Positions 19,837-36,843 are shown, counted from the stretch's first letter. The stretch is DNA of 36,843 bases from Nanobdellota archaeon (GCA_018830245.1 JAHJSW010000001.1:1-36843); one strand, 5' to 3'. Numbers and translations are program-made. The notes: generated by a model not told the origin, from the sequence alone.

Positions 19837-20763
19837 ATGTTAGAAAAAAAAGGTTATCTAGAACTCCCTTTTGCCTGGCTTTTTGCAATTGTTGCAGGAG
19901 CATTTATCTTATTTCTTGCAATTTTTTTCGCAACAAAACTAATCAATCTTGAACAAACCAGTATTGATGCTCAGACAGGAAAAGAGATTGGGATATTGCT
20001 TAATCCTCTTGAAACAAGTTTTGAGGCAGGGAAAACAACTTCATTTATAATGCCAGTTGATACAAGAATCTACAATAAATGCAATAATAAAGGAATTTTT
20101 GGGAGACAGATAATCCAAATCTCTCAAAAAAGTTTTAATAAATGGACAGAAACAGATTTAGAAGTTGGTTTCTCAAATAAATACATATTTTCAGAAAATT
20201 ATACAGAAGGGAAGAAATTTTATTTATTTTCCAAACCATTTGAATTCCCCTTTAAAATCTCTGATTTAATTTATATGACTTCTTCAAATAAAATTTACTG
20301 CTTTAAAGATCCTCCTTTAAACATAGAAGAGGAATTAGCTTCATTGAATCAAGGAAATATTAGAATAAATAATTGTTCAGGGGAAAGTATTAAGATTTGC
20401 TTTTCAGGAGGATCTGAATGTGAGGTAGATGTAAACTATGAATATAAATGGGTAATTAGAAATTCAGAAAAAGTATATTTTGAAAAAGATGCACTGATGT
20501 ATGCTGCGATTTTTTCAGATAAGAAAACTTATGAGTGCCAGTTAAAGAGATTAATGCAAAGAGTAAATCAATTAGCGCTATTATATCAGGATAAAGCAGA
20601 TTTTGTTTCAAAAGCAGGATGCGAATCAAATCTAAAACAAGATTTATTAATGTTAAGTAATTCAGCGTCTGATTTTGAAGATTCGTCAAACCTTGGAGTG
20701 CTTGCTATAAATGTTGAATCAATTAAAGACAAAAATAATTTTGCAGATTGTGAGTTATGGTAA
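19837..20763 (+). CDS. Class III signal-peptide-like protein
   Basis: KKG|YLELPFAWLFAIVAG followed by a soluble Cys-containing domain. Confidence 0.7.
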   Translation: MLEKKGYLELPFAWLFAIVAGAFILFLAIFFATKLINLEQTSIDAQTGKEIGILLNPLETSFEAGKTTSFIMPVDTRIYNKCNNKGIFGRQIIQISQKSFNKWTETDLEVGFSNKYIFSENYTEGKKFYLFSKPFEFPFKISDLIYMTSSNKIYCFKDPPLNIEEELASLNQGNIRINNCSGESIKICFSGGSECEVDVNYEYKWVIRNSEKVYFEKDALMYAAIFSDKKTYECQLKRLMQRVNQLALLYQDKADFVSKAGCESNLKQDLLMLSNSASDFEDSSNLGVLAINVESIKDKNNFADCELW

Positions 20764-20764
20764 G

Positions 20765-21283
20765 ATGAAAAATAGAAAAGCACAACTAAAAATAAAGCAA
20801 ATGACATTTATGTTAATTGCTGTCACGCTATTTTTTGCACTAGTTGGAATGTTTGTCTTGGTTATTAAATTTTCAGATATACGAGAAGCTGCAACTGAAC
20901 TTGAAGAGAGGAATGCCATGTTACTTGTTTCAAAGCTTGCTAACTCCCCTGAATTTTCTTGTGGAGGAGCATTTGACACACCTCGGTTAAATTGCATAGA
21001 TGCTGATAAAGTAATGATTTTAAGGCAACACATAGAAAAATACAATGATTTTTGGGGGGTTTCGAATATAGAGATAAGAAAAATTTATCCTGCAGCAAAC
21101 TCTGAAATCTTGTGCACTCTTGAGAATTATCCTAATTGTAATATCATCAGATTACGTTCAAAAGAGATTATTGGAGCAGATTTATCAAATTTTATATCTT
21201 TATGCAGAAAAGAACCTTATGAAGGAGATTATTACAATAAATGTGAACTAGCCAGAATTATGGTGAGTTATGAAGAAAAATGA
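20765..21283 (+). CDS. Class III signal-peptide (pilin-like) protein
   Basis: Start reassigned to ATG 20765: MKNRKA|QLKIKQMTFMLIAV. Confidence 0.7.
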   Translation: MKNRKAQLKIKQMTFMLIAVTLFFALVGMFVLVIKFSDIREAATELEERNAMLLVSKLANSPEFSCGGAFDTPRLNCIDADKVMILRQHIEKYNDFWGVSNIEIRKIYPAANSEILCTLENYPNCNIIRLRSKEIIGADLSNFISLCRKEPYEGDYYNKCELARIMVSYEEK

Positions 21284-22510: not shown

Positions 22511-24910
22511 ATGAAATTTAGTTTTAAAAAAATATCTGCTATAGCAACTAGTGCATTAATGTTAGGTATGAGTGCTGGTGTCGCTGTTGCAGCAAGCTAT
22601 CCAGAACCTTTTATTTCTGGAGGAAGTGCAAATGTAGCTATTGTTTATGGTACAGGGGCAGGGGTTTCTGCTCTAGATCTTGTTCAAGCCGGAAACATAC
22701 AGTCTAATTTGCAATCTAATCTTGGTTCAGCAGGAACTACTGTAACTAGTGGTTCTGTCACTGGAGGAGATAGTGTTAAATTCGAAAAATCTTCAACAAA
22801 ATTCCAATTAGGAAAGGGGATTACAGATATTATCTCAACTTCTATTACTGATGATAGTCCTGGAGAAGGACTTAAAGTTCTTTTAGCTGATGGGAAATAT
22901 GTGGATGATGATAATGACGAAAAAGACTATACTCAAAAGATTGATATGGCTAACTTAACATTAGGTATGTTTGATGATGATGACTATAAACCAGACACCC
23001 CTACAATTGGCTTTAGAGTTACTAGCGCATCTCAGGTATTAAATTATACCTTAGATTTTACTGATGAACCAGAGTGGGCAGACTTAACATCAACAAATAT
23101 TGAAATTATGGGAAAAACATATTTCATATTGAGTGTTACAGCAAACACAACAATAAATCTTCTTGACTCAGCAAATACTGCAACAGTATCAGAAGGTGAA
23201 ACCGCAAGTGTTACTGTAGAAGGAACAACCTATGAAGTTTCTATCCAGTATATTAGTTCTACAGAAGTAAAACTAACAATTAATGGAGAGAATACAAATA
23301 GTCTGCAAGAGTCGCATACTCAAAAATTGAAGAATGGGGCTTATGTTGGTATCAAAGACATTATGCATGATTCAAAAACAGGAAGTGTGAGTAGTGTAGA
23401 GTTTAGTATTGGAACAGGAAAATTAATTCTTAAGGATGCTACTGATGTTGAGATTAACGATGCATCTGTGTCTAATATGAAAACATATATTACTACAACA
23501 AGTTCGTCTACTCCTACAATTAGCAAAATTGTAATTGAATGGAAAGCAGATGATGAATTATTTATAGCGCCAGACAGTGAGGTTACAATGCCAGGGTTTG
23601 GAGCAGTAAAATTGTCCTTTAGTGGGATGTTATACCCTAAAGAAGAAGTAATTACTGTTAAAGGAGGAAGTACTACTTATGCCGTACTTGAAAATTTCCC
23701 TATGAAAGATGGTTCAGTAGATATAAACATTCTTTACGGAAATAGTAGTGATTGGACAGGAATTGGAAAAGATTCTACTCATCTACTAAGAACAGATGTT
23801 GATTCAGACATAACATTTGACAAAGACACTGATGAATATTTTGTAGCTTCTTTTAATGATGGAAGTAATGCAGAATCTTATTTAATGAGGGCTACTGATT
23901 TCGGGCAGATTGGAACTACTACTGCAAACAGAACTGATATTCAGTATCGGAAAGATGGTGTTTGGACAACAATAAAAGACGATGCTAAATTAGCAGATGT
24001 TGTCACAATCGGGAATGTCCAATTAACTATTGGAGCAATTAAGAGATCTGCAGAAAATACTGTTGTCCTTACAGCAGGAACAAGTTGTAACTTTCATACA
24101 GCTTATTCAAAAGAAGGCTTAGAAGTTTTCTTACCATATGCTGCTGATGCTGGACCAGCTACTGCTAGACCAGGTGCGCTTAACACAACTAATGTAACTC
24201 ATGGAGGAACTGCTACCACTTTTGACTTAATCTTTAGTGAAGAAGACAAAAATGGAAATATTGGTGATGGAGGAAACATTACTGCAGTTCTTGGATGGAA
24301 TTCTGCCACAACTAAAGAAGCTTATGTAAGCGATGTTGGAAACGAATCAGTTACATTTGCTGAAGATGGAGACAGCACTAAAAAATGGCTAAGTTATAAA
24401 TATGGTGCACTTGCTTCTAAATTGTTGTGGGATAAAACAGGAGACCAGTATGAACTCCAGATAACATATCATGGAGATGAATCATATGGAGAAGTTTACT
24501 TAACTGCTCCTCTTGCAACTGTTTCAGCAGGAACAACTTCAACAACTACTGCAACTCAACTTGGAGATGTATTAGTAAAAGATAGTGAAGTTAGCTCTGT
24601 AAGTTCAAAGAACTTAATTATTGTTGGTGGAAGCTGTATTAATTCAGCTGCTGCTAAAGTATTAGGTGGAACTTATTGTGGTGCAGGATTCACAGAAGCA
24701 ACTGGTGTCGGAGCAGGAGAATTCCTAATCCAGAGTGTAGGCGATGCTTATTCAACTGGAAAAATCGCATTAGTTGTTGCTGGTTATGAAGCTGCAGACA
24801 CTGTAAATGCTGCTACATATCTAAGAACTCAAACAGTTGACACAACTGCAGGTAAGAAATACAAAGGTACTTCATCTACTAGTGCAGAACTTGTTACAAC
24901 AACAGTGTAA
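22511..24910 (+). CDS. S-layer protein (Methanococcus-type N- and C-terminal domains)
   Basis: MKFSFKKISAIA signal; AIVYG.GA...D...A..I at the N-terminus; NLIIVGG.CINS.A and LVVAG..AADT..AA..L at the C-terminus; many NxS/T sequons. Confidence 0.85.
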   Translation: MKFSFKKISAIATSALMLGMSAGVAVAASYPEPFISGGSANVAIVYGTGAGVSALDLVQAGNIQSNLQSNLGSAGTTVTSGSVTGGDSVKFEKSSTKFQLGKGITDIISTSITDDSPGEGLKVLLADGKYVDDDNDEKDYTQKIDMANLTLGMFDDDDYKPDTPTIGFRVTSASQVLNYTLDFTDEPEWADLTSTNIEIMGKTYFILSVTANTTINLLDSANTATVSEGETASVTVEGTTYEVSIQYISSTEVKLTINGENTNSLQESHTQKLKNGAYVGIKDIMHDSKTGSVSSVEFSIGTGKLILKDATDVEINDASVSNMKTYITTTSSSTPTISKIVIEWKADDELFIAPDSEVTMPGFGAVKLSFSGMLYPKEEVITVKGGSTTYAVLENFPMKDGSVDINILYGNSSDWTGIGKDSTHLLRTDVDSDITFDKDTDEYFVASFNDGSNAESYLMRATDFGQIGTTTANRTDIQYRKDGVWTTIKDDAKLADVVTIGNVQLTIGAIKRSAENTVVLTAGTSCNFHTAYSKEGLEVFLPYAADAGPATARPGALNTTNVTHGGTATTFDLIFSEEDKNGNIGDGGNITAVLGWNSATTKEAYVSDVGNESVTFAEDGDSTKKWLSYKYGALASKLLWDKTGDQYELQITYHGDESYGEVYLTAPLATVSAGTTSTTTATQLGDVLVKDSEVSSVSSKNLIIVGGSCINSAAAKVLGGTYCGAGFTEATGVGAGEFLIQSVGDAYSTGKIALVVAGYEAADTVNAATYLRTQTVDTTAGKKYKGTSSTSAELVTTTV

Positions 24911-24920
24911 GTCAAAAAAA

Positions 24921-24953
24921 TAATTTTTTATTTTTTCCTTTTTCTTTTTTTTT
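24921..24953 (+). terminator. Oligo-T archaeal terminator
   Basis: Long T-tract immediately after the S-layer stop codon. Confidence 0.65.
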
Positions 24954-25014
24954 AACTGATGGCTAGAGCTGTGCAAAAGCAAAGTTTTATATTAGGAAAA
25001 AAATTGTTTTTAAA

Positions 25015-25658
25015 ATGAACCTCTGCGGACTGAAGTCCGCAGTTTCCAAATCATGTTCAACCAATGAGAGAGGGACCATGGTGTTCCTCTTGATGTAAAA
25101 CATAGGAGATAGTAAAGTCCAAATCAGTGAAACCAACTGAGGCTATGAACTTTCCTTTAGACCAAAGATGTCGTCGAGGATATCTTAATTTAGCTTTAGG
25201 GTGAAACCTAAAGAAAAGGTATGAGGAAGCTCCCTTAATAAGTTGGACAAGTTTGCTTGGATTAACACTAACCTTGGTTTTAACAACCATATGGACATGC
25301 TCAGGCATAACATTGATTGTTATTATCTTGATATTATGTTTGGTACAAGTTTGTCTTATACAAGCTTGGATTAAATTTTTATATTTAATCTTACTAAACA
25401 TCTTATACCTATACTTAGTACAAAACTGGATGTGCCAAAAAGCAATACCAACCGAGTGATTGTTTCGATCATAAAGTTTCATAAAACTTATGCTCATGTT
25501 CAACTCCAGAATAAAGCTCACGCTAAATTCGTAATTTAGTTCATAGAGCCTAGTATCTAGGCTCTTCATAATCATGAATCAAGAAATAAATAAATTTAGG
25601 AGAAGGAAGGGATGCAATTCCCCTACTAGCTAAAGCTAGTAGTATCCTTGCAACTTAA
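25015..25658 (-). mobile_element. IS200/IS605-family element 1 (tnpA only, 644 bp)
   Basis: Left-end hairpin 25623-25642 with GATA guide; right-end hairpin 25023-25042 with GAAA guide; ends in TCAT; outside TCAT target is the host ATGA at 25659-25662. Confidence 0.85.
25057..25497 (-). CDS. tnpA: Y1 HUH transposase TnpA
   Basis: WHIQFCTKYR, EHVHM (HUH), KGASS, LWSKGKF..SVG and catalytic Y...Q; start set at ATG 25497 with GGAG 6 nt upstream. Confidence 0.92.
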   Translation of the reverse strand: MSISFMKLYDRNNHSVGIAFWHIQFCTKYRYKMFSKIKYKNLIQACIRQTCTKHNIKIITINVMPEHVHMVVKTKVSVNPSKLVQLIKGASSYLFFRFHPKAKLRYPRRHLWSKGKFIASVGFTDLDFTISYVLHQEEHHGPSLIG

Positions 25659-26219
25659 ATGAAAAAAATTACTGAAAAAAGAAAAAATGAGAAAAGAAAT
25701 CAGCTGATTCTAGGACTCATCTTAATAAGTGTTATGTTTTTGAGTGTTTTGGGATATGCTTTAAGGGAAGAAGAGGAGAGTGAGGAAGAAAAAGTTATTT
25801 ACAATAATTTTGAATTTGAAAAAAATAATGACTTCTGGTACTTAAGTGTAGAAAATTTTAATTTTGTTTTTAAGAATAATCCTTTTCAAATAGAAGAAAT
25901 TCCAGCTCAATTAAAAGGGCTGAATAATTACAAAGGAAAACCATTATATATTTATTCAGAAGAGGACGAAGCGAGTTCAGAAATCTATATAAATCTAAAC
26001 CAATTGATACAAAGAATGCAATTTGCTTGCCTAGAAAGTTTAGAAAATTGTGAGGAAAATTCTCCTACAAAAACCTGTGAAGATAATTTTATTATAATAA
26101 GAGTTAATAATAATACTCGAATTGTTCAGGAAGAAAATTGTGTATTTATACAAGGGAAAAAAGAAGAGATTGTAGGATTAGTTGATGAATTTTTATTTAA
26201 AATAATTGGAGTGAGATAA
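25659..26219 (+). CDS. Membrane-anchored hypothetical protein
   Basis: Basic N-terminus, single TM, YNNFEF...W and Cys-containing domain; loosely similar to the next gene. Confidence 0.65.
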   Translation: MKKITEKRKNEKRNQLILGLILISVMFLSVLGYALREEEESEEEKVIYNNFEFEKNNDFWYLSVENFNFVFKNNPFQIEEIPAQLKGLNNYKGKPLYIYSEEDEASSEIYINLNQLIQRMQFACLESLENCEENSPTKTCEDNFIIIRVNNNTRIVQEENCVFIQGKKEEIVGLVDEFLFKIIGVR

Positions 26220-26221
26220 AA

Positions 26222-26938
26222 ATGAAAAAAGAGAGAAAAAAAGTTAAAGAAATTTTCAAGATAGAAAAAAAAGGTGAAGAAAAAATTAAAAAAACTTCTG
26301 GAATTGAAAGAGAGGAAAAAATTGATGCGAAAAAATTAAAAAAACAAATTCAAAAAGAAAACAAAATACTAAGAAACTTTCTTATCGTCATTGGAGCGAT
26401 AATTGTTTTTATTGCTTGTTTTTTCTTTATTTCATATCAAATAAGAAATTTTGAATACAAAGAAGTCAAATTTAAGATAGTAAAAGAAAAGAATTTAATA
26501 TTCTATAAAACTTCATTTCCTCTTTACTCTCAAGAAGGTGTGCATACAGCAGATTATAATTTTTTTATAAGAAACGACCCTAGAAAATTAGGAGAAGAAG
26601 TTCCTTTCAAAGGACAGTTATTTTTATTAGAAAATTTTGTAATTAATATGAGTGAAGAATTTCATTGTGAAGGAGATGGAATGATTGCAATAGCAAACAT
26701 GATAAAACCTCTAGAAGTTTTAGGAGCTAAAGTGATAAAAGATGAAAATGCTTCTTGCGATGTTTCAGGAAGATACATCTTCTTACAAATACAATCAGGA
26801 AATGAAACCGAAATAAAGCAAGTCGCCCCTTCTTGTTATAATCTATATGTTAAAGATTGCGAAATTTTAAAGGTGACAGAAAGATTAATGCTTGAAACAT
26901 TTATTGAATTTACAAAAGCTCAAGAAAAGTTAAATTAA
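26222..26938 (+). CDS. Membrane-anchored hypothetical protein
   Basis: Lys/Glu-rich N-terminus, [14 protein letters not shown] and Cys-containing C-terminal domain. Confidence 0.65.
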
Positions 26939-27558
26939 TTTTTTCTTTTTTTTAGTAAGAGGTAAATTATTATAATAATTAAAGATAACAAAAGTAAAAG
27001 AAGTATGAGAATATTCTTGTTTCCATCTATCCACTCAGTGCTTCCTCCAAATAAATATCCTACATAAATGAGAATTACTGTCCAAATACCTGCCCCAAGA
27101 CAAGTATAAAAACAAAATTTAACGAAATTCATCCTCGAGAATCCAGCAGGAAGCGAGATTAACTGCCGAACTACTGGAATTAACCTTCCTATAAAAGTTG
27201 TTATCTCCCCGTGTTTTTGAAAATACTTGTCTGATTTTTGTAATTTTTCCTTGTTTATAAGAAAAAATTTCCCATATTTTGAAACTAATAAATCAACTGT
27301 TTTTCTTCCAAGATATAATGCTAAAAAAAAGTTAACTAATGCTCCGACTAAACTTCCGAGTAATCCTGACAAAAACACTAAAAAAAAGGACATCTCTCCT
27401 TTTGCGACTAGTGCTCCTGCAGGTATAAGCACGATTTCACTTGGGAAAGGGAAAAAAGAGCTTTCTACAGTCATCCCAATAAAAATTCCTATATATCCTG
27501 CCTCTTTTATGATTAACAATAAAGTACTTATCAATTGATGGAATAGTTCTAAAATCAT
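26935..27558 (-). CDS. dedA: DedA-family membrane protein
   Basis: [14 protein letters not shown]...[17 protein letters not shown] motifs. Confidence 0.92.
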
Positions 27559-28094
27559 TTTCTTTTTAAAAGAGAATTTTTATATAAAAATTTTAAATCT
27601 GAATAAAAAGGGATATCTTTTATTTTAAAAATTTTGACTTGAGCAAACCAGATTATTACTACAAAAAGTGTGCTTCCAAAATACCAGAATAATTTATGAG
27701 TAATATCAAAAAAAGAAGAATTTGAGATAAACATCAGACTAAGTAGAAAAATTCTAATTAGATTAAGCACGAGGAAAGATAGAAAAGAAAGAACAATTAA
27801 TTTCAGACGTTTCTTAAGGTTAATTTTAGGGGTAGCTAAATTTAGTATCAAAAGGAGATAATAAGCTGCGCCTGCAATGCATGCTCCAACTATCTCAATA
27901 GGAAAACAGCTTGAAACAGTTATTAAATTTTCATTTAGATTAGCATCAAAAAAAAGATTTATCAAAAAATGAGAAGGGTAAAGAGTAAGAACATTAAATA
28001 AAGAATACAAAAGATTTAAACCAAAAAACCCTGTTAAGACCAGAAAAGAATATCTAAATAAAATGTCTAAAAATTCCCTGGATTTTTTCTTCAT
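27555..28094 (-). CDS. Archaeosortase/exosortase-family protein (pacearchaeosortase-like)
   Basis: Multi-TM protein with the Cys-Arg-His triad: [22 protein letters not shown]. Confidence 0.8.
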
Positions 28095-28143
28095 TATTCC
28101 CTAAGTGGAAATGTATTTAAATAATTTAATGTTATTGATTAAA

Positions 28144-28731
28144 ATGAAAAAGAATAATCTAATAATTTTAACTCTTTTGCCTATTTTATTTGCATTAATA
28201 AGTTTTTACTATGATTCTAAGATTATTTACGGAGTATCTTTAATACAAAATAACTTTTTAAATTATTTTTTTATAGGAATTACTTATCTAAGTTCAAAGA
28301 TAATAATTTTCTTTTTACTGACTGGCCTTTTTTTACTTTATTCAGAAAAAAGAACGTGGATAATTCCATTATGGTTTTCTTTAGCATTATCAGTTTTAGT
28401 TAGTTTCTTATTAAAAATCACTGTGCAAAGATCAAGACCATATCAACAAGAGTTAATTTCAGCACTCTCTATGTTAAAAGAAAACAGTCATTTAATTTGG
28501 GATTTTTCATTTCCCTCATTTAGTGCAATGTTTGTTTTTTGTGCGATTCCTTTTATATCTAAAGAATTTCCGAGATTCAAATATATATGGATAATATTTG
28601 CAATTTTAGTTGCTTTTTCTAGAGTTTACCTTGGATTGCACTTCCTAAGTGATGTGATAATTGGTGGAACAATCGGATATTTGATTGGAATGATAATAGT
28701 AAGAAAAAGTTATAAGAGAAAACAAGATTAA
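28144..28731 (+). CDS. PAP2-family membrane phosphatase (degenerate motif 2)
   Basis: K....R.RP, SFPSFS (canonical PSGH), SRVYLGLHFLSDV; start set at ATG 28144. Confidence 0.8.
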   Translation: MKKNNLIILTLLPILFALISFYYDSKIIYGVSLIQNNFLNYFFIGITYLSSKIIIFFLLTGLFLLYSEKRTWIIPLWFSLALSVLVSFLLKITVQRSRPYQQELISALSMLKENSHLIWDFSFPSFSAMFVFCAIPFISKEFPRFKYIWIIFAILVAFSRVYLGLHFLSDVIIGGTIGYLIGMIIVRKSYKRKQD

Positions 28732-28749
28732 AATTAAAACTTTTTAGTT

Positions 28750-30393
28750 TTATTTTCTTGCAATTTTTACAATAACAATAATGATAATTATTACTAGAAC
28801 TACATTGAATAATCCAATTCCCCATAACCAAGCATTATTTCCATCAAGAAGATTAGATAAGCTAAAACCCTCTTTTTCAATGAATACAGAAACTGATTGT
28901 GTCTTTACAATTTCTCCGGCTGTAAGAACTTCTATATCAAAAAGTTTATTTCCTTCTACATCTTCTTTAACATTAAGTGTCACTAAAATTTCTTTTGAAT
29001 CTCCTTTAGCCAGAGTAAAAGTGCTTTGGTCTACACTAGCAGAAGATGCCCAATTTGAATATCCTGTTGTCATAATAGTATAAGTTCCTGATTCTTTTCC
29101 AATATTTGTTACAGTAGCTCTTACAATCATCTCTTCTCCAGCTTTTCCTCCAGATTCTAAACTTGCAGAGATAGTTACATCTGAAACACTGCTACTACTG
29201 CCTAAACAGCTTCCTTCAATCTGAAGAGGAAGAGTAAATGAGGATTCGTCTTCATCATAATCATTTTCAAAAATATCATTATCTTCGTCATAAACCTCAA
29301 AAGTAAGGGGGTAGTATTTTTCTTCTGCATCTTCTGGAATTTCAATTAAAACATCAAATTTTTCCCGATCAAATGCATCAATATCTCCGATATTTATTCT
29401 CTCATTTATCCCAAGTGCTGTGTTGTAAATCATAACATAAACATCTTCTTGGTCATTATCTCCAATATTCCAAACATCTGCTGTTATCTGAAGATTTGTT
29501 CCACATGAAACTAATTCTGTGAAATCAATATTGTTTAAAATTACAAAATCTGATTCTTCATAAACAGTCACGATTCCAGAATCACTTGCACAGGCATCAT
29601 ATTCAGGGTTAGTATTATCCTCTTTGAACTCCCCTGTGGCTCTCACATAAAGAACCAAATCCCCATTTACCAAATCCTCTAAATCTTCATCAAGGTCATC
29701 ATCAACAATAAATGTAAAAATAATTGTTTCATCTTCTCCGTCCTTTAGGTCAATTTCTTTTTCTTCATCCACATCTATTGCCCATTCTCCTGTTTTTTTA
29801 TCATAAATTCCCCACTCTATAGAGATGTCTTTTATTTTCTGGTCATTGTTTTTATTGTCAATCTTAAGTTCAAGTTCAACTTCATCAAAAGGAAGCCATT
29901 CATAATCCTCTCCAAAACCAGATATAACTTTAATATGTCTAATTTCTAAATTTAAATCATTATTTAAATCAGTATATTCATTATCATCATAAGTACAGAA
30001 TTCTGTATTTTTTGTGAATGAAACAATTTGACTTCCACCCGTTGAAGCAGTTAAGTTAGTTTTATAATCTTCATAAAATTCAAAATTAAATCCTACTTGA
30101 ACATCATAATCAAAAGTAATTGGTTCAGCAGATGTTCCTCCAAAAGGGTGTGTCAATCCCGCAAAGGTTATTGTTTTTCCATTAGAATCTGTAATAGTTA
30201 TTGGATTAAAAGAAAAAACTACACTTTCTATATCAGTACTTGTTGCTGAAATATCAAAAGTTTGTGCACCTTCTGTTAAAAGTAATTGTGAAGGTGTTAC
30301 ACTATTAAATGTAACTGCTGCGCTAGCAAAACCAACTAAAAGAATTACTGCTAAAACACCCATACCCATCAAGTTGAATATTTTTGTTTTCAT
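28750..30393 (-). CDS. Putative second S-layer/Ig-repeat surface protein
   Basis: Signal peptide; acidic CARDB-like repeats (VWNIGD..Q, VTNIG); C-terminal TM with basic end. Confidence 0.7.
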   Translation of the reverse strand: MKTKIFNLMGMGVLAVILLVGFASAAVTFNSVTPSQLLLTEGAQTFDISATSTDIESVVFSFNPITITDSNGKTITFAGLTHPFGGTSAEPITFDYDVQVGFNFEFYEDYKTNLTASTGGSQIVSFTKNTEFCTYDDNEYTDLNNDLNLEIRHIKVISGFGEDYEWLPFDEVELELKIDNKNNDQKIKDISIEWGIYDKKTGEWAIDVDEEKEIDLKDGEDETIIFTFIVDDDLDEDLEDLVNGDLVLYVRATGEFKEDNTNPEYDACASDSGIVTVYEESDFVILNNIDFTELVSCGTNLQITADVWNIGDNDQEDVYVMIYNTALGINERINIGDIDAFDREKFDVLIEIPEDAEEKYYPLTFEVYDEDNDIFENDYDEDESSFTLPLQIEGSCLGSSSSVSDVTISASLESGGKAGEEMIVRATVTNIGKESGTYTIMTTGYSNWASSASVDQSTFTLAKGDSKEILVTLNVKEDVEGNKLFDIEVLTAGEIVKTQSVSVFIEKEGFSLSNLLDGNNAWLWGIGLFNVVLVIIIIIVIVKIARK

Positions 30394-30512
30394 TTTGTAA
30401 TCATTCCAGAGTTACTATGGTTTATAAACTTTTCTATATTATAAAATATATTAAAAAAAAGTAATTTCAAAAGGTTTATATATTTTTGAAAATTTAATTT
30501 ACTAACGATAAA

Positions 30513-30905
30513 ATGGTGATTAGATCAAAAGAAAATTCTCTTGGGGCGTGGGCTTTTTTAATAGGAGTTATTCTCGCAGTAGTTATTGGAATAAGCACTT
30601 CTTCTTTTTTGTCAATATCAAAAATTACTCAGTATAGCCCTCAAATTTATGCAATTCTTGTTATACTCGGAATTTTTGTTGGATTTTCAATTAATGTTAC
30701 TGGAAAAGATTCTCAAGCATTTTTAATTACAAGTGCTATTTTAGTAATTGTTAGCAAGTTTGGCATGGAAAGTGTTACTGGTTCATTAATAGGCATTGGA
30801 GTAGGAGATACAGTATCTTCAACATTTGCTGCTTTACTTGCATTGTTTGTTCCAGCAACAATAATTGTAGCACTAAAAACAGTTTTTTCTATGGCAAAGA
30901 TTTAA
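30513..30905 (+). CDS. Four-TM membrane protein
   Basis: GAWAFLIGVILAV, LVILG..VG..N and FVPA.IIVALK hydrophobic segments. Confidence 0.7.
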   Translation: MVIRSKENSLGAWAFLIGVILAVVIGISTSSFLSISKITQYSPQIYAILVILGIFVGFSINVTGKDSQAFLITSAILVIVSKFGMESVTGSLIGIGVGDTVSSTFAALLALFVPATIIVALKTVFSMAKI

Positions 30906-31108
30906 TTATCAATAAAGGTGAATCTTGGTCCTTGATAGTCTTTTTTATTAATTTCTTCTAAGAAGTTTTTTAATGGTCTTGCCCAGACCTTGTTATTCTC
31001 TAAAGATTGATAAATAACAAGAGTTTCCCCTGTTTCAGTGTGAACTGCAGTATCAAGAACCTCATACACTCCTCCTTTAAAATGCCTATACTTGCCTTTT
31101 CTAATCAT
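30902..31108 (-). CDS. DUF1653 family protein
   Basis: G.YRHFKG..YEV...A.HTET.E.LVIY..L...WARP...F...PRF. Confidence 0.9.
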   Translation of the reverse strand: MIRKGKYRHFKGGVYEVLDTAVHTETGETLVIYQSLENNKVWARPLKNFLEEINKKDYQGPRFTFIDN

Positions 31109-31724
31109 AATTTAACTTATCTATATTTATTATAGAAGCATCATTCATATCTAATCTAGGACAAGCAGTATTTATCCATGCTTTTAACCCAAAATTCTGA
31201 AATTCTTGATTATCTATATTATTACTAATAAATAGGTAAGCAGATTTATTTTTCAATTTTCTCTTTAAATCAATTGCTTTTTTTAGATTTTGTTGGCCAG
31301 GCTTTGTTGAGATGATAACTCCTATTTTTTCTGAATTTAAAAAATTTAAATAAGATGCCTTTTGTTTTTTTCCAAATTCTTGTATATTTTGATTTGAAAC
31401 TCTTTCTAAGGTGCTATTAATTATATATACAGGGATTTTTGTTTCATAATTCAGAGAAAGGGCGTGAAATTTTCCATCGCTTACTAAAAGAATTGCTTGG
31501 GTGTTTTTCGGCAAGTTTGGCTTACTACATCCTAAAACTTGCACTGTCTTTAAGATTCTATGATTTTTTTCAAGAATTTTTTTTAATCTCAAGGCAAAAT
31601 CTTTATACTGTATAGAGTAAGCAATAACAAGGTTTTTAGGGAGTTTTTCTAAGAAGATCTTTAGTTTAGATTCTGGAATATTCAATTTTGCTTTTGCAGG
31701 GATAAATATGGTTTTCATATCCAA
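31101..31724 (-). CDS. dph2: Diphthamide synthesis protein Dph2, N-terminally shortened
   Basis: QVLGC, GKFH, STKPGQ and TACPRL motifs. Confidence 0.8.
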   Translation of the reverse strand: MDMKTIFIPAKAKLNIPESKLKIFLEKLPKNLVIAYSIQYKDFALRLKKILEKNHRILKTVQVLGCSKPNLPKNTQAILLVSDGKFHALSLNYETKIPVYIINSTLERVSNQNIQEFGKKQKASYLNFLNSEKIGVIISTKPGQQNLKKAIDLKRKLKNKSAYLFISNNIDNQEFQNFGLKAWINTACPRLDMNDASIINIDKLNYD

Positions 31725-31764
31725 AAATAGAATAAATTGATTATAAATATTTCCCCATACTTTT

Positions 31765-31944
31765 TTAATCTTTATCAGGAGGTATCTTTATTCCTAAACT
31801 TGGAATTTCAATTGTTCTTCCTTTCCTTTGATTGTTTTCTAAAATTAATGCTGCTAATCCCTCTACTACAAACTGAATTTGACTACCGAATGCTTTGGCT
31901 CTTTCTTCAGGATTGTAAGTCTCTTTTCTAGAAATGTAATCCAT
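31765..31944 (-). CDS. 59-aa hypothetical protein (not in the ORF track)
   Basis: MDYISRKETYNPEERAKAFG...IEIPSLGIKIPPDKD*; starts 3 nt after the sepF stop and fills the gap. Confidence 0.4.
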   Translation of the reverse strand: MDYISRKETYNPEERAKAFGSQIQFVVEGLAALILENNQRKGRTIEIPSLGIKIPPDKD

Positions 31945-31947
31945 ATT

Positions 31948-32340
31948 TCACTCAAACCTATTGCTCTTTTTTGCTGGAGGTTGTGCAGTCTCTTTGTGAA
32001 TTTTTGCAAAAGAAGGAGTTACAATCACTATGTTTTCTCCAAACCCTGCAATGCTTCCTTCAAGGGCATCAGTAGTTTTCTTAATTTTTGAGATTGCTCT
32101 TTTTAATTCTATAGAATCTTTTTGTCTCAAAATTTTTATATCTATCACTGCAATAGTGTATCCTTCTCTTAAAGCACTAAGAATCTCGTTGGTATCCTCG
32201 TAGTGCTTTAAAACAAAAAGCCTTACAAGAACCTTGTTGTCTTTTTCCTCTTTTTCTAAATCAATTTCTAAATAATCCTCGTCAAATTCATCTCCTCTCG
32301 ATGAACCTGAAAACGCTCTTTTTATTTTATCGAAAACCAT
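31948..32340 (-). CDS. sepF: Archaeal cell division protein SepF
   Basis: N-terminal amphipathic MVFDKIKRAF; LREG.TI..IDI..L..D..ELKR.....K.....G.IAG....IVTP. Confidence 0.85.
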   Translation of the reverse strand: MVFDKIKRAFSGSSRGDEFDEDYLEIDLEKEEKDNKVLVRLFVLKHYEDTNEILSALREGYTIAVIDIKILRQKDSIELKRAISKIKKTTDALEGSIAGFGENIVIVTPSFAKIHKETAQPPAKKSNRFE

Positions 32341-32406
32341 AACTAAATTATATATGAGATATTTATAAAGATTTCGTAATTATTTTACATACTTTTTGTC
32401 TAAATC

Positions 32407-32739
32407 CTATTTTTTGCTCTTTTCTCTTTCTTTAAGAATTTCTTCTCTATTTGCCTCTAATTTTTCAGCCAGAGATTTCTCTTGTTTTTCAATAGTCTTC
32501 ATCCTAAGACCTAATATCTTTTCCTTGTTAGAAAGCTCTTCTTTTACCCCTAACTTATCTGTTTTAATCATTAACTGCCCGATAATTTTGAAAATTTCCT
32601 CTCCAGATTTCTCTATTTCTTCTAAAGCAGACTGGGTTTCAGACAATTCCATCTGAAAGGCTTGTTTTTGAAGAAGAATGTTTTGGAGGTTTTGCTCAAT
32701 CAACTGCATCTCTTGTATTTTTGTGTTCATATCTTTCAT
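32407..32739 (-). CDS. pfdB: Prefoldin beta subunit
   Basis: QKQ.FQMEL.E...ALEE, FKIIG.LMIK and coiled coils; follows rpoP. Confidence 0.88.
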   Translation of the reverse strand: MKDMNTKIQEMQLIEQNLQNILLQKQAFQMELSETQSALEEIEKSGEEIFKIIGQLMIKTDKLGVKEELSNKEKILGLRMKTIEKQEKSLAEKLEANREEILKEREKSKK

Positions 32740-32750
32740 TTTAATTTATT

Positions 32751-32888
32751 TTATTCAGCTTTTATTTTTTTTACTTTTGTTCGCGGTTTAAAGAAAATCT
32801 TACTTCCACAAAAAGGGCAGACAAATCTTTTGTCCAACTCATTACTCTGAATCTTTTTTCCACATTTAAAACATTTATATGTTGTCAT
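32751..32888 (-). CDS. rpoP: RNA polymerase subunit P (Rpo12) (not in the ORF track)
   Basis: MTTYKCFKCGKKIQSNELDKRFVCPFCGSKIFFKPRTKVKKIKAE*, a zinc ribbon in the expected rpl37Ae-rpoP-pfdB context. Confidence 0.9.
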   Translation of the reverse strand: MTTYKCFKCGKKIQSNELDKRFVCPFCGSKIFFKPRTKVKKIKAE

Positions 32889-32922
32889 TTTGATAGTCTT
32901 ATAATAATCTTAAATACTAAGT

Positions 32923-33612
32923 TTATAAATTTATTTCTAAAGAGGCATATGTCAAAATTACCCCTAATCTTCTCATTCTTTCTATGTATCTTTCTATCCT
33001 TTCCTGTCTTGATAAAAACATATCTCGCAATATTTCTTTTTTTATCCCCGGCATTTGAAGTTCCAACATAAACCTATGAGGATAAGAATCGCCATGAGGC
33101 CCAGATATTTTCGTATGGAGTTCTGATTCTAACCTGGTTGTGATATCATACTTCCACACCCCTTTGCCATCATAAACTTCTGATTCTAATATCGTATTAG
33201 TATCTTCTTTTAATCTTCTCTTTAATTTTGCATGGGCAATAACATCAGCGAGGGATGGCGGATAAATAAAATTTTCGATAAGAATTTTTTTAGGATGTGG
33301 GTGCACCCATATTGCTTTTATTGAAGATGGGTGCCTTTTATTTAATAAAGTTATAATTTTCTCAACATCAAACTCTACCTCTTCTCTTCCCTCTGCAAAC
33401 CCTAGATCATAGCATTTGCCCTCTAAGCATATCCAAGCATCTTCTCTTTCTGCATTATTAGCTAAATTGTGAAATTGTTTCCTAGCTTCAGCATAAGAAA
33501 TATTATATACTGTTCCAGTTCCAGATCTAATTCTAATTTTATTATCAAAATCTAAATTAACACTTTGTAGGATTGCTAATCCTATTAGTAACGCGTATAA
33601 TGTTTTTTTCAT
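32923..33612 (-). CDS. Signal-peptide protein with JAB/MPN-like metal motif
   Basis: N-terminal hydrophobic signal; E..., HPHP...PSLAD motif. Confidence 0.55.
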   Translation of the reverse strand: MKKTLYALLIGLAILQSVNLDFDNKIRIRSGTGTVYNISYAEARKQFHNLANNAEREDAWICLEGKCYDLGFAEGREEVEFDVEKIITLLNKRHPSSIKAIWVHPHPKKILIENFIYPPSLADVIAHAKLKRRLKEDTNTILESEVYDGKGVWKYDITTRLESELHTKISGPHGDSYPHRFMLELQMPGIKKEILRDMFLSRQERIERYIERMRRLGVILTYASLEINL

Positions 33613-33708
33613 AACAAAAAGAGATCTTATCCTTATATATAAAATTATCTCAAACTTGCAAAAGAGACGGCTATAATTTGAATAATCTGCTCACTAAAAA
33701 TCAAAAAT

Positions 33709-33930
33709 TTATTTTTCTAAATAATATGTATTTGAAGCGAATTTCTTCTCGCATTTTGAACATTTCCAAATCCCTTTTGAAAGTCTTTTTACTCCGAGTT
33801 TTTTGCAAAAAGGGCATGTTTGTTTTATTCTCTGTTTTTTTTCTACATTAACTACTTTCATTCTGACTTTCTTCCCGTATCTTGCTCCAAATCTTCCTGC
33901 TGATTTTGTTTTTTTTGATTTTGTAGGCAT
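33709..33930 (-). CDS. rpl37ae: 50S ribosomal protein L37Ae (eL43)
   Basis: AGRFGARYG, CPFC...VKR...GIW.C.KC...FA. Confidence 0.95.
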   Translation of the reverse strand: MPTKSKKTKSAGRFGARYGKKVRMKVVNVEKKQRIKQTCPFCKKLGVKRLSKGIWKCSKCEKKFASNTYYLEK

Positions 33931-33942
33931 TTTAAATTAAAA

Positions 33943-34015
33943 TGGGACTGCCCGGATTTGAACCGGGGTCGTCAGGTCCCAAACCTGAAAGGCTACCAAA
34001 CTACCCCACAGCCCC
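33943..34015 (-). tRNA. tRNA-Pro(UGG), intronless, CCA not encoded
   Basis: Acceptor GGGGCTG/CAGTCCC; anticodon arm TCAGG-TTTGGGA-CCTGA; GGTTCAAATCC T-arm. Confidence 0.95.
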
Positions 34016-34056
34016 TTAAATAAATGAGGGCCATAGGAATTTATAAAACTATTGAA

Positions 34057-34665
34057 TTATTTTTTATCTTTTTTCTCTTCTTTCTCTTCTTTAGCTTTTG
34101 TCTCTTGTTGAATTATTTTTTCTTGCTTGTTTTTTACTTCAGAAAAATATTTTTCTAATTCTTGTTTTTTTTCTGAAGAAGTTTCAGTGATTTCCCCTTT
34201 AATTTCTTTATCATATTTTCCTTCTTCTATCTCTAACTCAATCTCTTTCGCAGGTTTGTTTTCTATCAAAACCCCTAAACTTGAACATGTTCCAACGACT
34301 GTTTTTACTGCAGATTTTAAATCTTTACAAAAAAGATTAGGCAATTTTGTTCTTGCAACAGAGATTATTTGCTCGATAGAAGCATTAGCAACTTGTGCTT
34401 TTTTTTGTATTCCTGAACCTTTATCAATACCTAATTCTTTTTTTATTAATTCTGAAACCGGAGGAGAAAAAACTTGAATCTCAAATTCTTTTGTAGAAAC
34501 ATTTACTTCTAGTTCAACAGGAACTTTTAATCCTTTGAAATCTTTTGTTGCCTCATTTACTTTTTGAATAATCTTATTTGCATTAAGACCAAGAGGACCA
34601 ATTTTTTGACTCAAAGAAGGTCCTGGTTGCATATTCCCTCCTTCAACTAAAAGTTTAATCTGCAT
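34057..34665 (-). CDS. rpl11: 50S ribosomal protein L11 with Lys/Glu-rich C-terminal extension
   Basis: VEGG..PGP....GPLG.N, FKGLKVPV, PP.SELIK, VGTC.SLG. Confidence 0.93.
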   Translation of the reverse strand: MQIKLLVEGGNMQPGPSLSQKIGPLGLNANKIIQKVNEATKDFKGLKVPVELEVNVSTKEFEIQVFSPPVSELIKKELGIDKGSGIQKKAQVANASIEQIISVARTKLPNLFCKDLKSAVKTVVGTCSSLGVLIENKPAKEIELEIEEGKYDKEIKGEITETSSEKKQELEKYFSEVKNKQEKIIQQETKAKEEKEEKKDKK

Positions 34666-34867
34666 TTTCCAACGCCCTCCTCAACTTAGATTTTTTTTCT
34701 ATTAATCTCTGAAGTTCTTTAGTAGGATACGCATAATGAAGAATTGCTGCTTCAGGATCAGTAGCTAATTGCCTTGCAAACCGAGGAGAAACTTTTGTTT
34801 TTTGATCTATTCTATAATTTATCATCTCCAATCTAACTCTCAAATAAAATTCTCTCAACTTATTCAT
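34655..34867 (-). CDS. Hypothetical protein between spt5 and rpl11
   Basis: 70-aa ORF overlapping both neighbours; contains the GGAGG SD of rpl11. Confidence 0.5.
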   Translation of the reverse strand: MNKLREFYLRVRLEMINYRIDQKTKVSPRFARQLATDPEAAILHYAYPTKELQRLIEKKSKLRRALENAD

Positions 34868-35312
34868 TTTCTTCTTCCTCTCTCCTTATAACCTTAACAT
34901 TGTCTAATTTAATTGTAACAGGTAGTGGAACAACAGCTCCAAGTAAGCTTACTACAACTTCTTCTTTTTGTTTATCGATTCTTAAAACTTTTGCTTTTTC
35001 TTTTTTAAAAGGTTCTGAAATTATTTCTACTATATCTCCGTCTTTTATTGAAATCGCACTTATCGAAGGCTCAATCATATTTTTTATTTCTTCATATCCA
35101 ATTGTTTTTCCGATAATGCCTTTTACATATGGAAGATTAAATACAGCTTCTTCTGCTGATTCTCTATCCTCTGCTTCTAAAAGAATATATCCTCTTAATC
35201 CGTGAGGTCTTGAAACAGAAAATACTCTAAGTTCCTTTTTTTTGGCTCTATCAGCAACCATATCAACTGCTCTTTCTTCTTTGTTTGTTGTTACCTTTAT
35301 AATAAATATCAT
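34860..35312 (-). CDS. spt5: Transcription elongation factor Spt5 (NusG)
   Basis: NGN domain (LRGYILLEA) plus KOW (GDIVEII.EPFK.EKAKV..ID). Confidence 0.95.
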   Translation of the reverse strand: MIFIIKVTTNKEERAVDMVADRAKKKELRVFSVSRPHGLRGYILLEAEDRESAEEAVFNLPYVKGIIGKTIGYEEIKNMIEPSISAISIKDGDIVEIISEPFKKEKAKVLRIDKQKEEVVVSLLGAVVPLPVTIKLDNVKVIRREEEENE

Positions 35313-35401
35313 TTTCTCTTGCTCTAGCTATTCTCTAATCTGTAATATAATTAAAGAATAATAATACTATTTAAAAATTGGGGTTTATAAAATTATCTGA
35401 A

Positions 35402-35587
35402 TTATTTAATAAACATCTTCATCGAGATTGAAATTAAAAACCCAAGAGCACCTAAGATAAGAATTCCGATTGCAGAAACTTTTGCAATGGTCTCGAATTC
35501 TTTTCGAGTAGGTTTTCTCAGTGCATGCCATACTCTCTTACATTTAACAATAAAAGATTTTGCAGGAGTTAATAATTTCTTTACCAT
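35402..35587 (-). CDS. secE: Protein translocase SecE (Sec61 gamma)
   Basis: RVW...RKPT.KEF...AKV..IGI..LG.LGF. Confidence 0.92.
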   Translation of the reverse strand: MVKKLLTPAKSFIVKCKRVWHALRKPTRKEFETIAKVSAIGILILGALGFLISISMKMFIK

Positions 35588-35681
35588 GATATACTTAAAA
35601 ATGATTAGTTTTTAAGGTTTTGGAGAAGCTAGACGTTAGTAAAAAATCCTAAGTAAAACAAGATTTAATTTTTAAAAAACA

Positions 35682-35957
35682 TCAACAAAGTCCTCTCCTT
35701 AATTCGCGTTTTTTTTCCTCTTGAGGAAACCTTTTTTCTCTTGGTTCAAAATAACGAGGAGGAAAAGATTTTTGAATTGCTGGTTCTATAGAAGGAAGAA
35801 CCCGCACTCCTGAACCCTCATTTACTCCTCTCACGTATCCCCATGTGAAAAGCCCTGTTGCTAAAACAAGAAAAGATATTCCGATTGCAAACATCTCAAG
35901 CGCTGCATGAAGAACCCCATTGTAATCTTTTTTCATCTTAGAATAATTTTCTTTCAT
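35682..35957 (-). CDS. Small membrane hypothetical protein (host gene of IS element 2)
   Basis: One TM segment; original start inferred as ATG 35957 (MKENYSK), whose SD now lies beyond the IS at 36589-36592. Confidence 0.55.
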   Translation of the reverse strand: MKENYSKMKKDYNGVLHAALEMFAIGISFLVLATGLFTWGYVRGVNEGSGVRVLPSIEPAIQKSFPPRYFEPREKRFPQEEKKRELRRGLC

Positions 35958-36581
35958 TACATCCACGGCGAGGATACCACTGCTTTAAAGCAGGGAGGAA
36001 TCGCCGTCCTCAAAATTTAATTCTTCCAAATGATTAGAAACAGAAGGTCTGGATACTAGACCTCCTGAATAAAACACAAAGTTAGCATGAGCTTTGTCTT
36101 CTGCTGACTTAGGAGATAAAAAATGGATTTGAACTCGCGGAAGCACAGTTTCGGGCAAAATGCCTTCCACTTTGTCTGGAAAATTAAATATGCTAAAGAC
36201 CCTTTCAAATTTTACGGGTTGAAGATGGATTGCGAGTTTTTCTTGAGGCAAGTTGCTTACAGACGAGGATTCAAAATTTACGAACTCCACGTCGCTGTTG
36301 ACCATGTCCACTTGTTTGTTGAACTTCCTCCAACTGTGAGTGTTAGCATGGCTCTTCAGTTGTTTAAGGGCTACTCTGCCTTTAAACTTTTCAAAAAACA
36401 TCCTTGGTTGAGAAACCACTTTAGAAATGGACACTTCTGGAGCCCTGGAAAATTCTTCCGTAGCGTCGGCAACACAACCACCGAAGCTGTCCAGCACTAC
36501 ATTACTTCTTCTCAACCGTGGGTTTCTTAGTTTTAACATTTTATTTGTTGATACCTCGCGCTTTAGCGCGGGGTTATTCAT
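35958..36581 (+). mobile_element. IS200/IS605-family element 2 (tnpA only, 624 bp)
   Basis: TCAT target 35954-35957; GATA 35973-35976 plus left hairpin; GATA 36550-36553 plus right hairpin 36554-36573; terminal TCAT 36578-36581. Confidence 0.85.
36123..36530 (+). CDS. tnpA: Y1 HUH transposase TnpA
   Basis: FHFVWKIKY, DHVHL, KGYSA, FWSPGKFFRSVG and YI..SQ; AGGAG SD upstream. Confidence 0.92.
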   Translation: MDLNSRKHSFGQNAFHFVWKIKYAKDPFKFYGLKMDCEFFLRQVAYRRGFKIYELHVAVDHVHLFVELPPTVSVSMALQLFKGYSAFKLFKKHPWLRNHFRNGHFWSPGKFFRSVGNTTTEAVQHYITSSQPWVS

Positions 36582-36751
36582 TTTTCTTCTCCTTTCAATT
36601 TTATTTTAACTAGTGATTAAGTAAGATTATTTACCTTTATTAATATAAAAACATTATGTTCTTTAAGGATATATGCCCTCCCCCTTTATTTTTTTATATA
36701 ATAAACAAGGTATAACGCTTTGTATGACAGTTACAGAGTATGAGTTAATTT

Positions 36752-36843
36752 TTAACATGGAGGCTCTGTTTGGTCAACTTCTCCAGTACAAAATACAGAT
36801 GGGTCTAAACCACAATCCTTTGCTAAAACATTAGAATCACACG
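36752..36843 (-). CDS. Probable C-terminus of a gene running off the window edge
   Basis: Open frame CDSNVLAKDCGLDPSVFCTGEVDQTEPPC*. Confidence 0.35.
   Translation of the reverse strand, partial: CDSNVLAKDCGLDPSVFCTGEVDQTEPPC

Follow-up and report, generated by a model that had tools for sequence, protein, structure and literature searches.

The 36,843-nucleotide (nt) stretch of Nanobdellota archaeal DNA analysed here (GCA_018830245.1, JAHJSW010000001.1:1-36843; contig C21 of its genome, hereafter the window) contains two insertion sequences (IS) of the IS200 type, element 1 (e1, minus strand, 25015-25658) and element 2 (e2, plus strand, 35958-36581), each inserted antisense to a host gene precisely at its start codon. 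The closest described systems are IS608, ISDra2 and IS200. In IS608, as set out in PMC3201880, the cleavage tetranucleotides are read by guide tetranucleotides located 5' of the hairpin foot, and e1 and e2 share with it a Y1 HUH transposase, subterminal hairpins, a flanking tetranucleotide read by a guide, and a right-end cleavage tetranucleotide of their own. They differ in that IS608 has tnpB and the target TTAC, whereas e1 and e2 have tnpA only and a target, YCAT|TTT, that mirrors a start-codon context; furthermore, both cleavage sites are TCAT here, such that ATGA is duplicated on insertion. We found no antisense read-through frame described in the literature on IS608. ISDra2 of Deinococcus radiodurans belongs to the same single-strand 'peel and paste' family and has a homologous TnpA (2xm3, E 1.7e-13), but it carries tnpB; its target is the pentanucleotide TTGAT, and we know of no link between it and start codons.

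IS200 of Salmonella and other enterobacteria resembles the window elements in having tnpA only, a length of ~700 bp and structured ends, and its art200, an antisense transcript opposite the 5' region of tnpA, limits the transposase (PMC4513863). The antisense product of IS200 is, however, a small non-coding RNA made by the element, whereas in e2 the whole antisense strand is an open reading frame (ORF) that uses host signals and has its register on the host ATG. The IS200-type transposases of Sulfolobus (2ec2, E 1.7e-15; 2f4f, E 5.1e-15) are archaeal tnpA-only proteins and the best-scoring solved relatives of the e2 transposase (P0002), although they were compared as proteins only.

The source genome is 642 kb long with 31% G+C, 85% complete and in 42 contigs. 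Both elements (644 bp for e1 and 624 bp for e2) lack tnpB, and the sole family match inside each is to Y1_Tnp. The longest ORF in e1 encodes a 172 aa TnpA (25057-25575, minus strand; Pfam Y1_Tnp over residues 48-162, E 5.5e-26), and e2 encodes the 135 aa P0002 (36123-36530, plus strand; E 1.2e-26), which aligns with Y1 transposases of known structure, ISDra2 and IS608 TnpA among them, such that the HUH motif and the C-terminal tyrosine coincide. Identity between the two TnpA proteins is only 31%, and we therefore regard e1 and e2 as two different elements. All four ends fold as single-stranded DNA hairpins better than shuffled sequences (z -3.4 to -5.3), and the two ends of each element are unlike in sequence, having subterminal hairpins and not terminal inverted repeats. 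The right end of e1 consists of the guide GAAA (25043-25046) at the 5' foot of a hairpin (25023-25042; -10.1 kcal/mol, z -3.35) and the cleavage tetranucleotide TCAT (25015-25018, minus strand), which on the plus strand places a new ATGA behind the host promoter; its left end has the guide GATA (25643-25646) at the 5' foot of a hairpin at 25623-25642 (z -3.46). The left end of e2 (35965-36007; -12 kcal/mol, z -3.66) has an outer stem (35965-35971/36001-36007) enclosing the guide GATA (35973-35976) and an inner hairpin (35980-35993), and its right end (36550-36581; z -5.31) has the guide GATA (36550-36553), a hairpin (36553-36574), TTAT and the cleavage tetranucleotide TCAT (36578-36581). Read in the tnpA orientation both elements thus have the same layout of flanking TCAT, left hairpin, tnpA, right hairpin, 4 nt, TCAT and the other flank. 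The ends of e1 recur in other flanks (loci L019/L107, L108 and L109), and 69 complete copies have the same ends as e2.

The host gene at e1 (25659-26219, plus strand) encodes 186 aa, and its ATGA (25659-25662) is the target TCAT on the opposite strand, with which the left flank of e1 ends. Excision of e1 in silico joins TTTTTAAA to ATGAAAAAA, and the ATG then lies 22 nt downstream of the TATA-like box TTTTATAT (24985-24992, plus strand), from which e1 now separates it; the same layout is seen at orthologous loci. The host gene at e2 (35682-35957, minus strand) encodes 91 aa from the ATG at 35957, its ATGA being the target TCAT at 35954-35957. Here excision in silico places the Shine-Dalgarno (SD) sequence GGAG (36589-36592, minus strand) 7 nt before the host ATG; in the interrupted locus it is 7 nt before the element-borne ATG instead. 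A preliminary description of this DNA had proposed that both are IS200-like elements with exactly these boundaries, that each sits antisense on a host ATGA and provides a new ATG from its right end, that excision restores the upstream signals, that GATA or GAAA stands at all four hairpin feet, and that both right ends run hairpin, 4 nt, TCAT. All of this is borne out by the Y1_Tnp matches, the recurring ends, both junction TCATs and the IS-free loci described below, and we conclude that e1 and e2, boundaries included, are IS200-group members of the IS200/IS605 family.

For the e2 family, a metagenome scan gave 250 relatives, from which the best 80 were retained; 66 of these 80 loci and three earlier ones make up the 69 complete copies, all with the same type of ends. 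The non-redundant sets comprise 64 left junctions, 65 right flanks and 57 sites with both flanks. More distant IS200 families of the relatives, present as single copies with left boundaries that cannot be fixed, were excluded from all counts; several of those copies lie tens of bases upstream of a divergent gene and not on its ATG. The named relatives in which the same elements occur are metagenome-assembled genomes labelled Nanoarchaeota, Pacearchaeota and Woesearchaeota.

The guide and the target covary. At the 64 left junctions the guide GGATAC is accompanied by TCAT in 56 of 57 (the lone exception reads TCAAT) and GGGTAC by CCAT in 7 of 7, the covarying base in the window being A35974 of the e2 left guide, which changes with the first target base. 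YCAT ends 63 of the 64 left flanks, and CAT stands at the called junction in 62, as it does in L051 once that junction is re-called. Five distant relatives (L177, L179, L181, L183 and L190) have an AATA guide with a TTAT flank as judged by eye, with the boundary supported, by a tandem left end, only in L177. The pairing register has guide base 1 with target base 2, guide base 2 with target base 1, and guide base 4 with target base 4. The guide-to-cleavage-site rule that the preliminary description had borrowed from IS608 therefore applies to the family, and the series TCAT, CCAT and TTAT is a natural set for studying the retargeting rules of single-strand transposases. Right ends of the e2 family mostly carry TCAT, with a few TTAT.

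The target extends beyond the tetranucleotide. The three bases before the junction ATG are A in 92, 98 and 88% of e2 sites, and AAA occupies positions -3 to -1 in 81% of 59 sites, as compared with 32% of genomic ATGA starts and 6% of other ATGA sites. Because AAA is also present at 9 of 11 e2 sites that are not starts (p = 5e-10), it looks like a property of targeting, namely TCAT followed by TTT on the target strand, and we infer that the TTT is recognised at integration rather than selected afterwards. The extended target TCAT|TTT is the reverse complement of the local start context AAA|ATGA. The T-rich bases that follow the right-end TCAT are host sequence and not part of the element, since the match between flanks and IS-free loci reaches the junction itself: an IS-free locus on contig C5 matches the right flank of L092 beginning with the very first base of that flank, the same TTTATC... 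standing directly after the start-codon CAT, and an IS-free gene on C5 whose ATGA start is the junction matches the left flank of L087 as far as the final base of the flank.

Placement at start codons is a property of the whole family. At 46 of the 57 sites the junction ATG opens an ORF of 30 codons or more, and in 36 of these it is the first start codon of that ORF; at the other ten an in-frame ATG, GTG or TTG lies upstream, with an open stretch of 2-75 codons (26 codons or fewer in seven). Ten of the remaining sites have short ORFs only and one has no ATG. The rebuilt sites resemble textbook starts, many having an SD-like motif 5-9 nt upstream. By crude ORF-based gene calls on the single source genome (760 genes, 90.6% coding), its 6735 ATGA sites comprise 314 starts, 530 intergenic and 5891 intragenic positions, such that gene starts account for 4.7% of the total, or 37% once intragenic positions are set aside; 9.2% of genomic ATGA sites pass the ORF criterion used for the 57 e2 sites, and ATGA opens ~41% of called genes (314/760). 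The 46 start sites among 57 far exceed the 37% expected among non-intragenic sites (p = 1.8e-11). When the same comparison is made with AAA|ATGA (n = 459; 98 starts, 33 intergenic, 328 intragenic), starts are 75% of the non-intragenic sites, and the observed 81% agrees with this prediction of the 7-mer target (p = 0.20). Mimicry of the start context by a 7-nt target, together with loss of intragenic insertions, is therefore sufficient, and no extra targeting is needed. Thus the enrichment at start codons that the preliminary description had put forward holds beyond non-intragenic ATGA sites, with 81% against 37%, while a special sensing of start codons becomes superfluous, and its own reservation that only two insertions were at hand is settled by the pattern at 46 of 57 independent sites.

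These positions are commonly within operons. A co-directional upstream ORF ends at the junction in 38 of the 65 right flanks, its stop being the TGA within ATGA in 16 and a TAA one base before the ATG in 14. As the right end of the element ends in TCAT, the TGA is restored for the overlapping upstream gene while the host gene keeps its own ATGA, and a start-mimicking target accordingly leaves both the coding sequence and the overlapping upstream stop intact. Gene-dense tiny genomes offer transposons almost no other harmless landing site. Among the copies that are not on starts, L070 is past the terminator of a gene with an FtsZ-like translation. L103 lies 69 nt upstream of a gene with a translation like that of ribosomal protein L13, and is on the ATGA of a 23-codon ORF whose TGA overlaps the ATG of that gene. 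The 69-nt stretch is absent from the orthologous locus of the source genome and includes a hairpin whose loop is of the TTTAG type; the stretch may be what is left of an older small element.

The second general feature of the e2 family is its antisense strand. In all 69 complete copies (615-640 bp) one antisense frame runs for 182-210 codons without a stop, covering almost the entire element. In the window copy it has 198 codons (35985-36581, minus strand) and extends from the right-end ATG to a TAA that lies in the loop of the left-end hairpin, 27 nt short of the host ATG. Tallies of starts and stops were made over 60 distinct sequences. The frame ends as TAATG on the host ATG in 39, where the TAA is formed by the last two element bases and the A of the host ATG, and two codons earlier in the same frame, with the stop 8 nt upstream of the host ATG, in 6; in the other 15, the window copy among them, the loop of the left-end hairpin provides the TAA, ~27-31 nt short of the host ATG. 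In none of the 60 is the frame in register for fusion with the host protein. The right-end ATG is the start of the frame in 16, and an ATG at position 41-47 is the start in 43; L094 has its start only at position 148. In the 44 elements with a later start, the right-end ATG opens a leader ORF of 2-26 codons that stops at positions 6-78, and in 36 of these the leader stop is within a few bases of the second ATG, as would fit start/stop coupling.

The codon usage of tnpA reflects this frame. The antisense frame is codon-aligned with tnpA, so that antisense stops correspond to the sense codons TTA, CTA and TCA, and none of these is present in 56 e2-family tnpA genes of 135 codons (L099, with a mis-called ORF, was excluded); in the genome at large TTA and CTA make up 55% of leucine codons and TCA 25% of serine codons. 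At least 29 leucine and at least 19 serine synonymous switches have occurred among the permitted codons. The same genes provide an internal control, in that none of 261 TTR leucine codons is A-ending, as compared with 80% of AAR lysine, 70% of CAR glutamine and 55% of GAR glutamate codons. Outside tnpA, the 155-176 nt of 58 elements (23 sequence clusters) contain 20 stops in the ORF frame, all of them terminal, and 201 and 295 in the other frames. By contrast, 47 of 47 other IS200-type tnpA matches scored, e1 and its relatives included, have 1-10 TTA, CTA or TCA codons, as do more distant TCAT- or TTAT-type relatives. L178, a member of another family of this class with 68% identity, also has none, and its antisense frame, at least 179 codons long, terminates in a TAATG overlap with a 247-codon host ORF. 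There is thus selection for an open antisense frame and for its fixed start and end.

A frame of this type was also sought in e1 and rejected: the right-end ATG opens a plus-strand ORF of only 27 codons, and the antisense frame is closed because tnpA has seven TTA, CTA or TCA codons. By eye, copies of the e1 type are nonetheless on ORF starts at 5 of 6 judged sites (L002, L019/L107, L108, L109 and L116, but not L110). The e1 host protein has no Pfam family but has matches in 57 of the 61 genomes searched, the source genome G000 included, and looks like the product of a conserved core gene without an assigned function; it has a charged N-terminus followed by a hydrophobic stretch. Of the 56 matching relatives, the seven whose orthologous loci were displayed have a gene that begins ATGAGAAA at ~20 nt past a TATA-like box and have no SD sequence, which suggests that the gene is leaderless. 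Following insertion, the host promoter would give a transcript that starts with the element ATGA and the 27-codon ORF.

These features can be assembled into a mechanism. The elements would move as single-stranded DNA through their Y1 HUH transposase, with the left-end hairpin carrying at its foot the short DNA guide that reads the insertion site, as in IS608. The guide specifies YCAT, with insertions found where a T-run follows (TCAT|TTT), and on the opposite strand this is AAA|ATGA, the usual start context in AT-rich genomes that are ~90% coding. Intragenic insertions would be lost, so that most surviving copies lie between the upstream signals and the ATG, antisense to the host gene. The right-end TCAT would then leave ATGA upstream, providing a start codon for the host ribosome-binding site and a TGA for an overlapping upstream gene. 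Ribosomes could start at this element-borne ATG, either from the host SD sequence or by reinitiating after the stop of the upstream gene, cross e2 directly or by way of the leader ORF, and terminate at the host ATG or shortly ahead of it, in most cases at TAATG, where they would reinitiate. We consider it probable, from the sequence patterns alone, that the e2 antisense frame is a translational relay that keeps the host gene translated; the frame would then be translated, and expression of the host gene thereby preserved. The wider proposal, to which we give about equal weight for and against, is that a DPANN-type IS200 lineage has specialised on start codons, with a guide aimed at the start context, ATGA re-created and the antisense strand serving as the relay, making for a translationally transparent, non-polar insertion. 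A reverse strand readable by ribosomes is present in one lineage only.

Other mobile or engineered sequences arrive at the same outcome, that host expression is not destroyed, including self-splicing introns and inteins, Tn7 at attTn7, and non-polar cassettes. Introns and inteins, however, leave the RNA or the protein, and Tn7 inserts downstream of a gene, whereas the neutrality of e2 would be achieved through the relay. Engineered non-polar resistance cassettes rely on a similar device, an open frame terminating on the start of whichever gene follows. A stop/start overlap for coupling is found inside an IS of the HUH family in the orf121-tnpA pair of IS91 (PMC13181058), but this couples two element genes on the sense strand, whereas e2 would couple an antisense frame to a host gene. 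In the literature covered, we found no start-codon-directed IS200 insertion, TCAT target or antisense read-through frame, and no translational relay through a natural transposon; the available portion of a 2026 survey of archaeal IS elements (PMC13343696) likewise describes no such insertion or frame. If the relay is correct, it provides a new route to near-harmlessness for a mobile element, accounts for the persistence of IS200-type elements in reduced archaeal genomes, and offers a natural model for non-polar insertion cassettes.

Several observations weigh against this interpretation. Both the relay and the reinitiation step are read from DNA sequence. The 15 frames of 60 that stop ~27-31 nt before the host ATG have no obvious SD sequence between, and this is a weak arrangement for reinitiation. 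Eight of the 44 leaders do not fit simple coupling, the positions of leader stop and long-frame ATG being 6 and 44 in L031, 78 and 43 in L028, 36 and 148 in L094, 36 and 46-47 in L041, L087, L090 and L102, and 45 and 44 in L051. The e2 tnpA genes also nearly avoid GTA (1%), ATA (4%) and GCA (5%), none of which creates an antisense stop, so part of the codon pattern is left unexplained; we note that the corresponding antisense codons (TAC, TAT and TGC) are one change away from a stop. Ten of the 57 e2 sites are off gene starts yet have the open frame. Conversely, e1 and its relatives are at start codons without any relay frame, and the frame is thus not needed for residence at a start codon; nor does the relay explain any route to expression of the intact e1 host gene. 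The 60 e2 sequences are akin to one another (76-100% nt identity in tnpA), so that sequence counts overstate the number of independent events, and the null model rests on crude ORF-based gene calls from one genome.

The best surviving alternative, although in our judgement an unlikely one, is a safe harbour with a switch, in which insertion at the start codon silences an undamaged host gene and precise excision reactivates it, the e2 frame being irrelevant. Excision of IS200/IS605 elements is precise and the flanks are resealed, according to PMC3201880. At e1 the insertion parts a leaderless-type promoter from its ATG and offers only the 27-codon ORF, and host expression is plausibly lost; at e2 the 91 aa host protein has no Pfam family and no homologue in 60 relatives, which leaves its N-terminus beyond checking by homology, and the gene may be dispensable. 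The broad conservation of the e1 host gene, which is intact here, is nevertheless hard to square with stable silencing. The switch also leaves unexplained the exclusion of TTA, CTA and TCA from e2 tnpA, the ~160 nt of non-coding sequence kept in frame, and the complete absence of fusions between the frame and host ORFs among the 60 sequences. Among the joints listed in contigs of four public runs none skips 25015-25658 or 35958-36581, although contigs cannot exclude rare alleles, and none is a right-end/left-end circle junction; five DNA-type runs cover part of the stretch, all as contigs, and no RNA run is listed. The preliminary description had suggested that the host gene is off until the element excises, and for the e2 family the selected full-length antisense frame ending on the host ATG argues against this, suggesting instead that the host gene goes on being translated. 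For e1, which has no relay frame, an off/on switch is possible.

A second alternative is that the e2 antisense frame encodes a functional protein of the element, such as a regulator of transposition, and is more than a translated spacer. A frame of 182-210 codons in every complete copy might be taken to suggest this, as might 19 invariant alignment columns in 31 sequences, and overlapping antisense genes are known in bacteria. The median identity of the antisense product is, however, 0.64 versus 0.90 for TnpA, and 124 of the 135 third codon positions of tnpA are variable. Nothing protein-like emerged when a functional antisense protein was sought with Pfam, ESM Atlas and AlphaFold2: no Pfam family matches, the protein-language-model recognition score in ESM Atlas is low (1072), and AlphaFold2 with the 31-sequence alignment returns no secondary structure, with a predicted local distance difference test score (pLDDT) of 35 and a predicted template modelling score (pTM) of 0.13. 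The start and stop are tied to the element termini and the host ATG and not to signals of its own. The conserved feature is the openness of the frame together with its start and stop positions, and we regard a functional protein as quite improbable. Gene callers may annotate the antisense frame of ~200 codons as a hypothetical protein and miss the 135-codon transposase, and start-codon annotation near such elements needs care.

We have similarly little confidence in a third alternative, in which the frame is open to avoid premature termination or mRNA decay on 620 nt of untranslated RNA, that is polarity, without reinitiation at the host ATG. Coupling of transcription to translation is a feature of archaea, as is a termination factor that acts on untranslated RNA; moreover, most sites are within operons, as the 38 of 65 right flanks described above indicate, and in the 15 frames with early stops coupling would be weak. 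Avoidance of polarity alone does not predict the TAATG register, however, which is seen in 39 of the 60 frames with 6 more ending two codons earlier in the same frame, and L178 has the same TAATG overlap at 68% identity. Finally, a coincidence of two unrelated insertions on ATGA starts, conceivable with two complete copies in the window and ATGA opening ~41% of called genes, is refuted by the family counts (46/57, where 4.7-9.2% would be expected over all ATGA sites and 37% over those outside genes or at their starts) and by further start-codon copies in this genome and its relatives, and we give it virtually no credence.

Additional features are present within the elements. Upstream of tnpA in e2 there is an internal hairpin with a GATAC loop (36041-36067, plus strand), whose sequence is variable among copies while the hairpin is retained, and the e1 internal hairpin at 25545-25565 resembles it. 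The loop of the e2 left-end hairpin reads TTTAAA, 26 nt before the host ATG; a TATA-box role for a leaderless transcript was considered and is not claimed. In the window segment 36553-36585, the right-end hairpin, TATTCAT and the host T-run together resemble an oligo-T terminator for tnpA, and it is a speculative possibility that the preferred TTT past the target might also stop tnpA transcripts. A promoter and terminator scan with bacterial models, uninformative for an archaeal host, only re-found this right-end hairpin and T-run. The sole match in an Rfam scan of 24000-36843 is a tRNA (33943-34015), with none inside either element.

Further copies are present elsewhere in the source genome and in its relatives. 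Ends of the e2 type with differing flanks occur at contig ends: C7 terminates in a left end, and C38 and C31 each in a right end. The host strand reads ...TAAA before the two right ends, and the C7 left end abuts an ATGA opening a 382-codon ORF, the N-terminus of which resembles a UDP-GlcNAc 2-epimerase. Such ends recur in two relatives and in the 80 metagenome loci. Two segments of the window (~19840-20022 and 20771-20964) align at 71-74% identity with the e2 left flanks of L038 and L053, and orthologues of these two window genes, uninterrupted here, therefore bear e2 at the start codon elsewhere. A 656-nt unitig in run X3 spans 25011-25666, corresponding to e1 extended by 4 bases (TAAA) at one end and by 8 (ATGAAAAA) at the opposite end, as would be expected if several e1 copies in the sample share the extended site.

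Some loci show exchanges or unusual arrangements. One e2 flank is common and the other differs among L031/L032 and among L064/L066/L069/L074, with L069 combining the left flank of L066 and the right flank of L064; these mixed flanks could result from recombination between copies or from assembly chimeras at the repeat. L110 (2260-2500) has an e1-like left end and TnpA with an internal hairpin segment like that of e2, and its element precedes a gene ATG by 37 nt, lying immediately ahead of a TATA-like box and off the start codon. In L036 (1-1640) an e2-type element lies directly behind the terminal TCAT of an e1-type right end, showing that a right end can itself be a target and that the two families can stack. 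L177 (1250-1400) has two tandem left ends upstream of one tnpA, each preceded by TTAT, and this looks like a solo left end beside a full element.

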